A stretch of DNA of 64,000 nt, taken from an uncultured Desulfosarcina sp. (GTDB taxonomy: Bacteria > Desulfobacterota > Desulfobacteria > Desulfobacterales > Desulfosarcinaceae). This document shows positions 46,664-63,899 of the stretch, piece after piece. Made by a program: the position numbers and the translations under genes. The DNA is taken from the NCBI GenBank assembly GCA_963674945.2, contig CAXXWQ010000003.1, forward strand, positions 1,952,001 through 2,016,000. Reading direction: 5' to 3'. The notes under the pieces were generated by a model, which was not told where the DNA came from, searched no databases, and saw nothing but the letters and a program-made list of their open reading frames with translations. Within the stretch, counting starts at the first letter, position 1. The number at the start of each line of letters is the position of its first letter.

Positions 46664-46871
46664 AAATGTGAATTTATTTTTGCGCGAGCCCTAAGGTCCG
46701 CCGCGCTCGACACCCCGGCCACATTCATCAACATATCCCGATAGACGACGTCATCCATGCCCAACTGCTTCTTGGCGATATGGATCTTCGCAAGATCAAT
46801 ATTTCGTTGGTTTTTAATGGTCTGTTTTCTCACCGATCATCTCCTATGAGCTATGAGCTATGAGCTAAATT

Positions 46872-46933
46872 CGGCTGCTCATCAGGCCGCCCGCGCCACC
46901 GGACGACGATCCCGCCAAAAGCGGGATTTCGCA
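46872..46933 (-). ncRNA. Type II hammerhead ribozyme
   Basis: Minus strand: UGC-GAAA-UCCCGC(uuuug)GCGGGA-UC^-GUCGUCC(ggUGGCgc)GGGCGGC-CUGAUGA-GCA-GCCG; complete core, three stems and a possible loop I pseudoknot. Confidence 0.88.
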
Positions 46934-47548
46934 CTACAACGCCGCAAGATCCATTGACACCTGCCGCCACTTATCCTCTGGGAATTTTCGTTCGTAGAAT
47001 CTGATGTAGCTCTTCGATCCGACCACCTGGATGCTGTCGCCGATGGCCTCCATGGCCCTTAACCATTTTTCGTCGTCGATTTCGTACCGCCGCAGGCCGA
47101 TGATTTGCCGGACGTTTAGACGCCCCTCTTTGTCCACCTGGAACGCATCCATAACGATCACCTTGATCTCGTCGCGCCCTTCCTCTGTCCAGTCGGTGAG
47201 ACACTCGTCGATCAGCGCCTTTGCCGCTTTCAAACGCTCATCAAGCGAAATATGTTCGCTGATCGCCACTTGGATTTTCTTTGTCCCGTCATAGGAAATA
47301 AGGCTCACGTTCCCCTTGTTCCCGCCGAGATGAACTCCGTACTTCTCGGCCGACAAATCGATGAACGCGGAAACGTCCCCCATGCTCCTGACTTTAAATT
47401 CCTTCATGTTTTTTTGAAGTGTTTCTGCCGCCGTAAAAAGTTCTCTGACCAGTGAATCGCGCTCCTGGTCGATTTCATCCACCATGCTCTTCGGGACAAG
47501 GCGCCCCTTGGCATCCTCCATAAAGTCGTCTTTGTTCAGCTCCGCCAT
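46934..47548 (-). CDS. DUF3164 family protein
   Basis: 'MEDAKGRLVP', 'GG.KGNVSL.SYDG', 'DERL.AAKALIDECL..W', 'SKSYIRFYER'. Confidence 0.92.
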   Translation of the reverse strand: MAELNKDDFMEDAKGRLVPKSMVDEIDQERDSLVRELFTAAETLQKNMKEFKVRSMGDVSAFIDLSAEKYGVHLGGNKGNVSLISYDGTKKIQVAISEHISLDERLKAAKALIDECLTDWTEEGRDEIKVIVMDAFQVDKEGRLNVRQIIGLRRYEIDDEKWLRAMEAIGDSIQVVGSKSYIRFYERKFPEDKWRQVSMDLAAL

Positions 47549-56400: not shown

Positions 56401-56445
56401 TGGTGCCGAGGGACAGAATCGAACTGCCGACACGGGGATTTTCAG
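56401..56445 (-). pseudogene. 3' half of tRNA-Phe(GAA): att site of an integrated element
   Basis: Minus strand CTGAAAA-TCCCC-GTGTC-GGCAG-TTCGATT-CTGTC-CCTCGGC-A-CCA; no D arm or 5' acceptor strand. Confidence 0.9.
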
Positions 56446-56701: not shown

Positions 56702-56896
56702 TGCCACCCCTGTCGTCCGCTCTGCTCCCGACTATCTTCCTTTTCCGAACGGCTCCGCTAACGCTCCGGGCCGGCTTAACATCTCGAGCCAAAAGGAAGA
56801 TAGTCGGGAGCACCACGATTTTGTATCCATCCAGCCAAACCGTCTTGAATGAGCTTTGCCTGGACGGACAAAATCGGGGCTCCGACAGGGGCGGCA
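56702..56896. other. 195-nt three-way-junction structured element
   Basis: Outer stem 56702-56715/56883-56896; 22-bp perfect IR 56723-56744/56791-56812; third stem 56816-56876. Confidence 0.75.
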
Positions 56897-57031: not shown

Positions 57032-58024
57032 ATGGCTAAAAAAGAAATCCAGACGCGGAAATCCCGCTTTGACCGCGTTCCGGATCAGCGCATTCTGCAA
57101 ATCCAACCGCGCGATATTGAAATACTGGTTGCTTTGGCTCGCTATCGCTTTCTGACTTCACGCCAATTAATCGCCTTAACCGGCGGAGGGGAACAAGGGG
57201 TTTTGCGGCGCTTGCACCGGCTCTTTCACAATGGCTTTATTAATCGCCCCCGAGTGCAGATAAAAACCAGGACAATCGGCACCGAGCCCATGGCCTACGC
57301 CTTAAGTCGAAAAGGAGCCGACTGGCTCTGTGAGCAAGGCAAAATCACCGGCCGGAAACAAAACCAAATTAGAAGGGACCAGTGGGTCAGGGATGTCTTC
57401 CTGGATCACGCCTTATTGGTATCAAACTTCATGGTAACCATGGAGCTGGCTTGCCAGGCCGTAAGCAATTTAGAACTTTTAAGACAGGAGGATATGGTCA
57501 GGCATATCGAAAGATTAAACCTTAAAACAAAAATGAGAGACAGGATAAATCCTCTCTGCGGCCGGTTTCTATCCGACTATGTGCTTGATAGAGATGGGCA
57601 AAAAATAAAATTGTCTATTGTGCCGGACCAGCTATTCGGTCTGTATTTCCCGGACGAGCCGGACGGCAAAAACGAAATTTTCTTTGCTCTGGAAGCAGAC
57701 CGCTCCACCATGCCCATTATCCGGTCTGATTTTAAAAGCTCCTCCTATTTAAAAAAGATGCTGGGCTACTGGGAAGGCTATCACCAGAATGTCTATGAAA
57801 AATTATACGGCATAAAGGGCTTGCAGGTTTTGACCATTACCACCACTAAGGAGCGGATAAACAATATGATTGAGGCCGGCAAATTAATTGATCAAAGAAA
57901 AAAAGGCTCCCGCATGTTCCTGTTTGCTTGCTCAAGCGACATAGACATCGAACGCCCCACCTATATTCTGGAACAAATCTGGCGAAACGGGCGGGACAAG
58001 GAGCTTGTGAGCATGATTGAGTAA
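57032..58024 (+). CDS. Replication-relaxation (Replic_Relax) family protein
   Basis: 'RDIEIL.AL.RYRFLTS.QL', 'RRL..L...G.I.R', 'LDH.L', 'PDQLF', 'ALEADRST', 'K...Y'. Confidence 0.85.
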   Translation: MAKKEIQTRKSRFDRVPDQRILQIQPRDIEILVALARYRFLTSRQLIALTGGGEQGVLRRLHRLFHNGFINRPRVQIKTRTIGTEPMAYALSRKGADWLCEQGKITGRKQNQIRRDQWVRDVFLDHALLVSNFMVTMELACQAVSNLELLRQEDMVRHIERLNLKTKMRDRINPLCGRFLSDYVLDRDGQKIKLSIVPDQLFGLYFPDEPDGKNEIFFALEADRSTMPIIRSDFKSSSYLKKMLGYWEGYHQNVYEKLYGIKGLQVLTITTTKERINNMIEAGKLIDQRKKGSRMFLFACSSDIDIERPTYILEQIWRNGRDKELVSMIE

Positions 58025-58093
58025 ATAGCTTGGCGCGGCCAGTATGTCGAAATTTTTCCATAATCCTTTAATTTTATGGTGATAAAATAATAT

Positions 58094-58277
58094 ATCAACC
58101 TGGTTCCATCCAGGGGCTCAAGTGAAGATCTGCTCGCTTGTTAGAAAAACATTCAGAGCAGACTCAGGTGCCTTTTCTTGGAGAGTAACCTTGTTTCTCG
58201 GATGTTATCGGGCAAGGTTAGGTCGCTCTTTTGTTTCCGAGGCAAAGACAGGCGGTTGAACCAGGTTGATTTTTTTC
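58094..58277 (+). ncRNA. Candidate ~180-nt structured ncRNA of unknown class
   Basis: 13-bp terminal IR ATCAACCTGGTTC/GAACCAGGTTGAT, three internal hairpins, extended -10 TGaTAAAAT at 58080-58088, T run at the 3' end. Confidence 0.6.
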
Positions 58278-60581: not shown

Positions 60582-61655
60582 TTAATTCACATTACACATA
60601 AATGTTTCTCTATTCTGAACGCAAACATGCCAAGTATATTTTCCTTCTACCGAATCGAAATGATAAATTTGTATAGTTGGATACGCGTTAGGCTGATATT
60701 CCGTTCCCAATTTAAAAACAGTAGAGGCCTGAGCCGCTATAAATAAATGAACTTTTTCGATTTGGGCATAACCATCCTTTCCGCGCAAATTCCGTATCAA
60801 ATCATGAATCTTTTTTAATATTCTATTAAGCTTTTCACTGCTACTCATGGCGTCAGTACGAGGACCGTCACCGCTTAAATGAATCCATATAGTTTTATCC
60901 GATAAATCATTAGGAATCTGCGATTTTGGAATATCAATGGTGAAGGGCAATGCAATTGCGATTTCAGTACCAGAAAAATTTATCGGAAAAGTGATATCTA
61001 TATCTTCTAAATCATCCATATCATCCAGTGTGTGCCACTTTAGCTTAAATCTATTGTAATCCATAGTAATAAGATTTGCTCGGTTAGCGATTTCCACCCC
61101 TGCGGCATATAAAAGCGGGACAGGAGCAAGACCGGCAAATACTAAAAATGGAGTATCAGTACCAGTATCAATATATCTTTCGTTTAAAATTCTGCTGAAT
61201 ATCTGAATTTCAGCAAGCGCCTTTTCAGGAGAAATAGATGCCGTGTTTATGGTCAATGAATTCACATTCCCGTAACGGTATTTCGGGGGCATATCTTTGA
61301 TTGGAGGCGAATCATGCATGCCCGGCAATCCTCGGAAATATATCAGGCAGGATTTACGGTGCTTATTAACCTGTCTTAGCCCCCATATTCCAATTATTAC
61401 CCCTAAGAGCGCCAGGATTAATCCCGTATACGTAACGGTATCTGGTCCGATACTAACAGAAAAAGATGCTGGTAGACCCTCCGGTTTAATTTCAAAAACA
61501 ACCAGCAGCCACCATATCCCGCCGGGTGCCATTAGGCCGACACCTAAAGTCAAAAGAAACCGTGCAAAGCTGGTTATTGGATCAACAGACCTGAATTTCA
61601 GCCATTGGTTCCAGAACTGCCAACATAGATTCACTACCTTATCAAACATTTTCAT
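60582..61655 (-). CDS. CBASS effector, 2TM-SAVED protein
   Basis: Two N-terminal TM helices; SAVED-like 'FAGLAPVPLLYAAG' and 'VHLFIAAQASTVFKLG'. Confidence 0.88.
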   Translation of the reverse strand: MKMFDKVVNLCWQFWNQWLKFRSVDPITSFARFLLTLGVGLMAPGGIWWLLVVFEIKPEGLPASFSVSIGPDTVTYTGLILALLGVIIGIWGLRQVNKHRKSCLIYFRGLPGMHDSPPIKDMPPKYRYGNVNSLTINTASISPEKALAEIQIFSRILNERYIDTGTDTPFLVFAGLAPVPLLYAAGVEIANRANLITMDYNRFKLKWHTLDDMDDLEDIDITFPINFSGTEIAIALPFTIDIPKSQIPNDLSDKTIWIHLSGDGPRTDAMSSSEKLNRILKKIHDLIRNLRGKDGYAQIEKVHLFIAAQASTVFKLGTEYQPNAYPTIQIYHFDSVEGKYTWHVCVQNRETFMCNVN

Positions 61656-62166
61656 TCACCTCCGGAATTACCACTGTAGCTAACTCTACAAATTGAGCCG
61701 ACCGGTTTCCCCGCCATACACGGATATTTCTGGTCCCGATGATCAAAAAAAATAAAAATTCACCAAAGAATTCTCCCCGTCTCAGAGTATTTTTCCAATC
61801 TTTAAAATCAACCCTTGAAGGATGCGGTGTGGGTTCAGGGTGGGTATGCCAGAGCCCGACAAGAGTTTGGGTTTTGTCTGATAATTTCCATTTCTGATAA
61901 ACTAATTTGTTATGATGGGCTGATCGGAAGAAAAAGGTATAACGTCGTTTATCCCGGCGTGTCGGCTCAGTAATACTATCTACAACAATGTGATCGCCTA
62001 CCAGTAAATGCCGCCCGATTAATAATCCGCCCGCTTCCTTTCTTCGTTTGTCAATTTGTCGATAAGATATTAATCTGTCGACAACACTTTCAAGCACAAT
62101 AAGTTTGCGTTTATTTTCTATTGGACAAGAAAGCCGCATTAAGTAGTTTTCCCGCAAACCGGACAA
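61642..62166 (-). CDS. cap3: CBASS Cap3 JAB/MPN peptidase
   Basis: 'EAGGLLIG', 'VGLWHTHPE..P.PS.VD..DW'. Confidence 0.9.
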   Translation of the reverse strand: MSGLRENYLMRLSCPIENKRKLIVLESVVDRLISYRQIDKRRKEAGGLLIGRHLLVGDHIVVDSITEPTRRDKRRYTFFFRSAHHNKLVYQKWKLSDKTQTLVGLWHTHPEPTPHPSRVDFKDWKNTLRRGEFFGEFLFFLIIGTRNIRVWRGNRSAQFVELATVVIPEVNENV

Positions 62167-63899
62167 GACGGTTTGGCATAATCATTGGAATTAATTTCCG
62201 GCGGCATGGATGCCGCTTTATTGTACCAGTCGCTAAGCTCCAACTTTTCCCTTAAAGCTTCGGAACTGTCTCCGACCCAAAATTTATAGCAGGCCGACTT
62301 ATTGTTAACGATATAATTTAAAGCCAGTTCGCTTGTCATAGTGGCCGTTTTAATAGCGTCCAATGCTGAAAAAGGCGTAAAACCACCCCCACAGCCGGTA
62401 AGGTCTTTGCCGACCATCTGGTACGGCTTTAAGAATGATGATCTAAAATACGGTCCTTGTGGGCCTTTCTCTATTAAGCATTCTAAACAGCCGTTTGAAT
62501 TGTGATCGATAAGTATCGCGTGACCGCCAATTCCGCAAGCTTCCAACCAACAGCAAATTAACGGTGGCGGAGATTTAATTTTATAAAACTCTTTGTTCAT
62601 CTCGCGCAAACCAGTCAAGTCAGCAGTCGCGTCAATTATGATATCAACCTCTTGCAAGCCATTTTTCTCTAACCATTTTTCCCTTTTAATCGGTTCAGGG
62701 ATCACCTTGATATACGGGAGCCTCTGGCTAAGATTTTGATAAATAGCCTCGGCTTTTCGATTTCCAATGTCTTCACCCCCCAATAAATGGCGGTGAATGT
62801 TATCCGCGGACAAAATATCGTCGTCAATTACAACCAATTTACCGATACCGCTAAGCGCCAGTTGTTCCGCAATTCTTGAACCGACCGCGCCGCCTCCGAT
62901 TATAGCCACCGAAATATCATATATCGATTTATTTGCTCCCCCCCGTTCTACAAGGTACTCTCGATTCTGTCTTAAAATGTTAATTGGTGAGACATTCCAG
63001 TTTTGTATATCCTTGCTGAGAAAAAAAGGATATTTTGAGCGGCCCGAAATAGTGACGCCGAACATGGCCTTATGCCGGGATGGCCGGATTTGTGAAAAAA
63101 TAAAGAACTCAGTCCGATCCTTTTCTTTCCGGTTTTTAGTTTTTTCAGCTTTTCTTAGTAGTTGGGTGAACTTATCACGGTCTGACGGTTTAATACTGTT
63201 ATATAATTTTTTAACATAATTGGGGGTCAGGCCGGCGTCCATATCAGGTGGGAAGCCAGGAATATGGAGCGGAATATAATATCCTTTTTTAATTTGATTT
63301 TTTTTAAATCTTTCCGTGTATCCGTAGTTTTCTGGTAAAGTCGAATTATAGCATAAGTTCGGAGTTGTTTTTCTCCTAAAAGTCTTTTTCTTAGAGGAAG
63401 AGGAACTGATTTTAAAATTAATTTTACTTACTTTATCACCAGGCTCAAAAAAACAATGGATAGTCGTAATTTCCGGAAGCGATTGCCAATATCCTTCAAA
63501 CTCTTCAAATAGTTCGGTAAGATCCCTGTGGTAACTGCCTTTAAGGACTTTGATGACCTGATCGATAGATTGATATAGTACGGCTTTCGGATTATCCGCA
63601 TTAATAAAAATACTCGCAGACTTATCAATAAAGCAGATATCACCGTTAAAATTGACATGATTATGAAAATCGTGTGTTTCTGGCGAAGATAAAAAGAAAT
63701 AAGGAAGAGCGTTAGGAAAATTTATGGGTTCACAAATTAAAAGTTCATATTCAATTTTGCCAGCTTGAACCAGGCATGAAAAGGCTTTTGAAAGTTTCTT
63801 TTTGTAACCATCAATTCTTTTCGGAAGGCTCTCGATCTCTACGGCTTCGACGAAAATTATTTTAGCATGATCCCGCAATAAAATTTCAAAATCATACAA
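62139..63899 (-). CDS. cap2: CBASS Cap2 E2-E1 (ThiF) fusion
   Basis: E2-like 'P.NFPNALP...HVNFNGDICF'; ThiF 'IIGGGAVGS', 'DILSADNIHRH'; CLEC and CPVC zinc ligands; 'GCGG'. Confidence 0.9.
   Translation of the reverse strand: MYDFEILLRDHAKIIFVEAVEIESLPKRIDGYKKKLSKAFSCLVQAGKIEYELLICEPINFPNALPYFFLSSPETHDFHNHVNFNGDICFIDKSASIFINADNPKAVLYQSIDQVIKVLKGSYHRDLTELFEEFEGYWQSLPEITTIHCFFEPGDKVSKINFKISSSSSKKKTFRRKTTPNLCYNSTLPENYGYTERFKKNQIKKGYYIPLHIPGFPPDMDAGLTPNYVKKLYNSIKPSDRDKFTQLLRKAEKTKNRKEKDRTEFFIFSQIRPSRHKAMFGVTISGRSKYPFFLSKDIQNWNVSPINILRQNREYLVERGGANKSIYDISVAIIGGGAVGSRIAEQLALSGIGKLVVIDDDILSADNIHRHLLGGEDIGNRKAEAIYQNLSQRLPYIKVIPEPIKREKWLEKNGLQEVDIIIDATADLTGLREMNKEFYKIKSPPPLICCWLEACGIGGHAILIDHNSNGCLECLIEKGPQGPYFRSSFLKPYQMVGKDLTGCGGGFTPFSALDAIKTATMTSELALNYIVNNKSACYKFWVGDSSEALREKLELSDWYNKAASMPPEINSNDYAKPSCPVCGKTT

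Follow-up and report, generated by a model that had tools for sequence, protein, structure and literature searches.

A predicted structured RNA family beside the relaxase genes of MOBC-like mobilizable elements, with a divergent member in a tRNA-Phe-bounded island

The window analysed in this study is the whole 64 kb stretch G000:C3:1952001–2016000, which takes in the left end of an integrated island about 40 kb long that is bounded by a tRNA-Phe duplication. The left att site (56403–56445, − strand) is a 43 bp sequence repeat of the 3′ half of tRNA-Phe, and the second copy lies at C3:2048440–2048482 in the intact tRNA-Phe gene (G000:C3:2048440–2048513). From the left, the island contains a cruciform, a Replic_Relax gene, the RNA candidate reported here and a cargo of a Phd antitoxin, CBASS (CD-NTase, E1/E2, JAB and SAVED-2TM), TIR and copies of IS1595, with a VirD4/TrwB-like ATPase and tyrosine integrases at the far end. 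The CBASS operon (DncV-like cyclase, E1/E2, JAB and SAVED-2TM effector) lies at 60582–63899 (− strand) in the window and at L016:1902–2897 (− strand). A type II hammerhead ribozyme (55 bits; 46869–46934, − strand) is found in a Mu-like prophage in the window, and the 201 nt around it are identical at G000:C1:417473–417673. Elsewhere in the genome, a DUF932 gene at G000:C3:2377442–2378371 is 49% identical to that of locus L114 and possibly marks a second mobile element.

The Replic_Relax gene (57032–58024, + strand) encodes a protein of 330 amino acids which, from its PF13814 match and its fold model, a winged helix with a FokI-like nuclease fold (pLDDT 88), is a putative MOBC-type relaxase or initiator; no sequence relative of it was found in the PDB. 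In the available text of PMC3424549, PF13814 is listed among PD-(D/E)XK families, with a role in plasmid replication and relaxation, and in that of PMC5357655 it is counted as MobC. Upstream of the gene lies a second structure, a three-way cruciform (56702–56896, no strand assigned; z −9.9/−9.4) that is a candidate oriT or replication origin. It is nearly purely Watson–Crick, folds on both strands and is stronger than the fold of the RNA candidate. Counterparts occur at L023, L024, L146, L033 and L068, and that of L093 is 84% identical to it over 126 nt. At the window, L023 and L024, the minus strand of the cruciform or the sequence just outside it contains a short motif that we take to resemble the CS-6 box of ssoA. 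Four backbone genes of the window island recur, in unchanged order and with 35–52% identity, in the G343 element; the primase gene of the latter lies directly behind the RNA, whereas the window island lacks the CHC2-Toprim primase and has about 32 kb of other DNA instead. This G343 element (L176; G343:C52:1–15143), a more complete one of the type seen in the window, carries ParA/ParB, the cruciform, the relaxase, the RNA and the primase, as well as a RadC-like gene, genes for proteins of 237 and 299 amino acids and VirD4.

The RNA candidate (58094–58276, + strand) begins 70 nt behind the end of the Replic_Relax gene and is predicted, from its fold and from covariance models, to be a noncoding RNA of 177 nt forming a four-way junction, followed by a U tail. 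The extended −10 box pointed out in an earlier note on this sequence is present on the + strand at 58080–58088 (TG at 58080–58081 and TAAAAT at 58083–58088) as its predicted promoter, with no good −35 box. The closing arms named in that note also pair perfectly over 13 bp, 58094–58106 with 58258–58270, to form the helix P1, after which a T run continues to 58276. Within P1 the fold places a long hairpin, P2 (58109–58182), which has both an internal and an apical loop, and the hairpins P3 (58186–58220) and P4 (58221–58257), the latter two also seen in covariation. Two of the inner stems proposed earlier were recovered (58129–58135 with 58156–58162, and 58186–58193 with 58213–58220); the third is right at its base only, because its loop, 58236–58241, more likely kisses 58197–58202 in P3. 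For the + strand the predicted folding energy is −65.2 kcal/mol (z −3.25) and the centroid is well defined, and none of 200 shuffles folded as well; the − strand has a z of −3.79 and a poorly defined centroid. As had been reported, no ORF covers the candidate at a length of at least 50 amino acids, and chance ORFs of 25–49 amino acids overlap it. It is present as a single copy in the 7.08 Mb genome. Contigs assembled from the public runs X1 and X3 span it with identical letters, an agreement that counts only against assembly error; one of the runs may derive from the source sample itself. The copy in the window is divergent in that it departs from both conserved unpaired motifs of the family, in P2, and has no separate terminator hairpin of the kind present in homologues. 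A sigma70-like site (10/12) at 58098–58071 (− strand) overlaps the RNA promoter and is aimed antisense into the 3′ end of the relaxase gene.

Nucleotide searches with the RNA candidate gave only chance matches of 20–32 nt in 150 related genomes, only an AT-rich match of 26–29 nt in Staphylococcus phage records among phages, and no match among plasmids; a search of 59 sources with R1, a model of the single sequence, yielded no homologue. Because the searches at the DNA level failed, the loci of relaxase relatives were gathered instead, 137 besides the window. One is viral, seven come from searching genomes across the class and 49 from genome contigs, and of 234 metagenomic loci the best 80 were taken. 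At least 300 nt is available behind the relaxase gene in 117 of the 138 loci, the window included. Among viral contigs, neither the window relaxase alone nor the primase alignment found a relative and the relaxase alignment found one; plasmid records yielded one weak relaxase relative and phage records none. Three exact-pattern scans of viral contigs returned 2, 12 and 26 stretches, none of which was scored by the covariance model R2 described below.

Inspected by eye, a subset of the loci carries a −10 box, a stretch with paired ends and a terminator 3′ of the relaxase stop codon, and R2 was built from 12 such sequences, including that of the window. At E < 1e-6, R2 has matches at 16 of the 137 loci besides the window, every one of them on the relaxase strand, so that the search for homologues and their gene neighbours suggested in the earlier note leads to a family. 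These are 11 training loci and five loci outside the training set (L096, L123, L115, L106 and L026), where L096 scores 140 bits, L123 80 bits and L026 33 bits; L115 is a near-copy of L114, and the RNA of L106 is cut by the contig end. Weak R2 scores were obtained at L126, L136 and L097. Fifteen of the 17 copies begin at most 75 nt from the relaxase stop codon, the others being 1.5 kb (L096) and 1.9 kb (L123) away. All 17 R2 matches lie on element loci of the Replic_Relax/VirD4/primase type and none lies elsewhere in the genomes searched, R2 giving no match over 150 genomes of the phylum and one, an already known relaxase locus, over 150 genomes of the order; such genome searches lose divergent members, as R2 missed the RNA of L026 at the whole-genome level. 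The candidate had been described as standing alone; it does have its own predicted promoter, but it is a conserved part of one Replic_Relax/VirD4/primase element lineage. A hand-made junction descriptor proved too loose, matching the window and dozens of other places and missing L094, L118 and L123. At L033, L035, L037, L129, L130, L132 and L068, paired-end units of 225–265 nt with a terminator lie 3′ of the relaxase stop codon; they are scored by neither R2 nor R3 (a model described below) and may be divergent subfamilies. A Rep3 initiator is also encoded at L130.

The family forms a nearly perfect four-way junction of 177–230 bases. Its ends are closed by P1, the long hairpin P2 contains an internal and an apical loop, and P3 and P4 follow with linkers of 0–3 nt. 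In alignment A4 both sides change in 45 of 56 pairs and 82% of the cells pair, compared with at most 50% in slid-partner controls. The closing helices covary (8 of 9 and 3 of 5 pairs), and P3 has changes on both sides in 9 of 10 pairs, or 10 of 10 when the window is excluded. All 12 of 12 sequences can form 4–9 Watson–Crick pairs between the P4 loop and the strand that follows the P3 stem, which in the window are those of 58197–58202 with 58236–58241. The kissing strands form a mean of 6.3 bp with their own partner versus 4.3 bp with that of another member (0 of 5000 permutations), figures that are overstated, since the RNA ends and kissing windows were picked by eye, the windows after the pairing had been seen, and since the members are related. 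Only 56% of the cells of the kissing helix are paired in one fixed register, because the register slides. Very few letters are conserved across the family; the unpaired letters of the P2 internal loop are variable, and the apical-loop subtypes track the relaxase clades by eye.

At the flanks of the unit, 14 of 15 members have a −10 hexamer that ends 4–10 nt ahead of P1 (shuffles: mean 2.2, maximum 8 in 5000, overstated for the same reasons), and the opposite strand has a −10 box at the 3′ end in 0 of 13 members. Several homologues have a full −35/−10 pair, the −35 box overlapping the relaxase stop codon in some, and in homologues a hairpin terminator stands behind the RNA; the displaced copies of L096 and L123 retain their own −10 box and terminator. 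From these signals the unit is very probably transcribed from its own predicted promoter as a noncoding RNA. The terminator stems of L023, L024, L146, L094, L105, L114, L026, L129, L068 and L123 share GACACC/GGTGTC or close variants, more than a plain terminator needs, and these letters are possibly a recognition site for a protein or the primase. G–U pairs make up 109 of 691 predicted pairs (16%) in ten members, compared with 12 of 342 in six upstream cruciforms, and nine of the ten members fold better on the + strand, whereas the six cruciforms fold well on both strands. Given this difference in G–U content and strand bias, we infer that the downstream unit is RNA-like and the upstream cruciform DNA-origin-like.

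The place of the window copy in this family was assessed with R3, a held-out covariance model of 102 positions covering P3 and P4, built from 13 sequences with the window excluded. The RNA candidate was the top R3 match both in the window (28.2 bits, E 4.9e-5; next match 13.5 bits) and in the whole 7 Mb genome (E 0.0055; next match 15.9 bits). A held-out HMM of sequence only placed it first in the window (E 0.0037) and second genome-wide (E 0.39), and its pairwise identity to homologues barely exceeds that of shuffled sequence; family membership of the window copy therefore rests on structure, position and strand.

With regard to described RNAs, Rfam 15 gave nothing in the window at the gathering score except the hammerhead elsewhere, and nothing over the RNA candidate at E ≤ 10. 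Over 16 homologous loci no Rfam family scored above gathering, six further sources gave only tRNA, and L095 and L105 gave at E ≤ 10 only weak partial or terminator-type matches far below gathering. In a search of titles and abstract openings in a largely open-access literature collection, no description of this RNA was found. The designation in the earlier note, an unclassified island-borne RNA and not a retron, is supported by homologues that covary and carry promoter and terminator, with no link to Rfam or a reverse transcriptase (RT). In our judgement the family is genuine, a structured and so far undescribed RNA that goes with MOBC-like mobilizable elements. A resemblance to glycine and SAM riboswitches was dropped as Rfam gave no match, and very few conserved letters generally argue against a ribozyme or a riboswitch. 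A type I toxin mRNA with 5′–3′ pairing was rejected, there being no conserved small ORF: the ORFs within 13 members differ in strand, position and sequence, and no common peptide was seen by eye.

In a quick maximum-likelihood tree of 105 relaxases, from which near-duplicates, fragments and most low-scoring rows were left out, the RNA is spread over the basal relaxase lineages, and it is retained beside relaxases about 30–45% identical to that of the window. No R2 match occurs in a clade of 65 rows (100% support) or in the group of L100, L101, L103, L109 and L116, so that neither the relaxase nor the primase always needs the RNA. At L093, which has the closest relaxase (58% identity), the cruciform is present and the RNA was not found within 1975 nt behind the relaxase gene. 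ParA/ParB or a Rep3 initiator is encoded on some of the elements.

An RNA recognized by a protein of its own element best fits a unit that keeps its shape without its sequence, has its own predicted promoter and terminator, and is passed down within a single lineage of elements. The longest loop matches to the own locus (8–13 nt), as would be sought for a guide, bridge or cis-antisense RNA, equal the cross-locus background, and the duplex energies are alike for own and cross-locus pairs (−10.4 versus −10.5 and −14.9 versus −14.3). Action through protein binding and not base pairing is thus the probable mode as judged from these comparisons. The RNA, probably transcribed from its own promoter, would act in trans by its shape; it would bind the relaxase or primase module of the element and, once bound, would assist transfer or second-strand synthesis. 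This reading is preferred here tentatively and by analogy with sgm-sRNA of Salmonella Genomic Island 1 (SGI1), and a partner in the DNA-processing module of the element is somewhat less likely than not. In a more specific form, which is rather unlikely to be correct, the relaxosome or primosome would be a ribonucleoprotein with this RNA, a four-way junction locked by its kissing loop, as a structural subunit, bound by the MOBC-type relaxase, the VirD4 motor or the primase and needed for transfer. The kissing strands would then possibly join RNAs into a ring, by analogy with the pRNA of phi29, which forms a ring on its motor.

A transcribed RNA could also have its target outside the DNA-processing module. 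It might inhibit a host or defence protein or act as its decoy, or it might be an RNA antitoxin silencing the PD-(D/E)XK nuclease. The self-contained unit of promoter, RNA and terminator, movable to 1.5–1.9 kb from the relaxase, would suit such a role, as would structure kept with hardly any sequence and the DUF932, RadC and ArdC-like genes near it at L114, L123 and L098. However, no copy came to light away from these elements (0 matches in 150 phylum genomes; the one match in 150 order genomes being a known relaxase locus), many relaxase relatives without it speak against an obligatory antitoxin, and it lacks the repeats that characterize type III antitoxin RNAs. This target outside the module appears improbable, if worth keeping in mind.

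Another conceivable role is that of a replication-control or primer RNA of the episomal form, in partnership with the CHC2-Toprim primase and with the upstream cruciform as the origin. Among the 21 loci with a convergent primase gene, 12 have a strong R2 match, one a weak match and seven an unscored paired-end unit, compared with R2 matches at 0 of 35 loci with a co-directional primase gene; the ParA/ParB or Rep3 genes of some elements point the same way. The 35 co-directional loci fall mostly in one clade, however, and may reflect a single event. The RNA has no complementarity to the cruciform or the relaxase leader above controls, its ends are sealed in P1 with a terminator behind, leaving no obvious free primer end, and it persists in the window island without the primase. 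A primer or replication-control role is unlikely.

The unit might instead act as DNA, namely as a single-strand origin (sso) in the folded transferred strand, primed by RNA polymerase or by the element primase. The strand-specific fold behind a relaxase gene recalls sso1 of ICEBs1 (available text of PMC4595007), the fold also beats shuffles with DNA parameters (z −2.0 to −6.9), and a primase is close by in most members. Yet the linear −10 box at a fixed distance, the full −35/−10 pairs of several members and the terminator would all be superfluous for an sso, and the G–U content and the kissing loop are RNA-like, the DNA-type signature being found in the upstream cruciform. An sso seems quite unlikely on this evidence.

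Much less credible is a retron-like template or a guide RNA of the neighbouring nuclease, for which paired a1/a2-like ends with internal hairpins, the adjacent nuclease-fold protein and the variable unpaired letters of the P2 internal loop might be cited. A retron ncRNA has its branching G directly after the 5′ arm; here a C follows on the + strand and an A on the − strand, with no G on either. No cognate RT is adjacent: of the three RT matches (PF00078) in the genome none lies in the window, as the earlier note had said, or in the remainder of the island, the nearest being about 141 kb beyond the island end, and no RT was found among 24 neighbour proteins picked from homologous loci. The loops, as noted, match their own locus no better than others. 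Equally far-fetched is the view that the window copy has no relation to the family and is instead a chance fold, a decayed structure or a MITE, since against its modest z, low similarity to homologues and lost conserved loop motifs and terminator stand the first rank in the genome with held-out R3 (28.2 versus 15.9 bits) at the expected position and strand, four intact helices, the kissing pair and the −10 box, while the 13 bp terminal inverted repeats come as a single copy without a target-site duplication by eye and with arms that differ among homologues, so that neither a MITE nor a known Rfam family, both raised in the earlier note, accounts for it.

In conclusion, this study describes a compact, covariation-supported RNA family with a predicted promoter and terminator, a candidate origin and three candidate protein partners, which makes the question of a relaxosome or primosome RNA directly testable. 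To our knowledge, hardly any RNA is known to have a direct part in conjugative transfer, sgm-sRNA of SGI1 being the one close precedent, and if the subunit reading were true, no earlier RNA would have been shown to belong to a conjugative DNA-processing machine. The host elements bear defence cargo such as CBASS, and the family is kept across diverse relaxases.

Compared with known systems, the family resembles retron msr–msd RNAs in its paired 5′ and 3′ arms around several hairpins and in structure kept over sequence; it differs in having no RT nearby and no branch G, and in lying downstream rather than upstream of the neighbouring gene. sso1 of ICEBs1 is described in the available text of PMC4595007 as lying directly behind the relaxase gene nicK, as orientation-specific and as dependent on structure over sequence. 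The present unit is likewise a strand-specific fold behind a relaxase gene, sso1 having three stem-loops, but sso1 acts as DNA, whereas the RNA family has a linear promoter, a terminator, G–U-rich helices and a kissing loop (PMC4595007). As in the streptococcal IME_Class_8/MOBC modules, a PF13814 relaxase and VirD4 occur in an integrated element with no full T4SS seen (PMC5357655). The available text of PMC5357655 mentions no RNA for IME_Class_8, and the RNA-family elements add the CHC2-Toprim primase and often a second Replic_Relax gene or ParAB; IME_Class_8 has a serine integrase, whereas the window island has tyrosine integrases. Mobilization of SGI1 requires sgm-sRNA in trans with no need for oriT pairing, and, in the available text of PMC9299015, the authors propose protein binding and leave the mechanism open. 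Whereas sgm-sRNA arises by cleavage from the 3′ end of a transcript of about 700 nt and goes with the tyrosine-recombinase-like MpsA/MpsB, a primary transcript of 180–230 nt with its own promoter and terminator is predicted here, in the company of a PD-(D/E)XK relaxase, VirD4 and a primase (PMC9299015). In both cases, likened by description only, an RNA encoded by an integrative mobilizable element lies in its mobilization module, with an unusual relaxase (PMC9299015).
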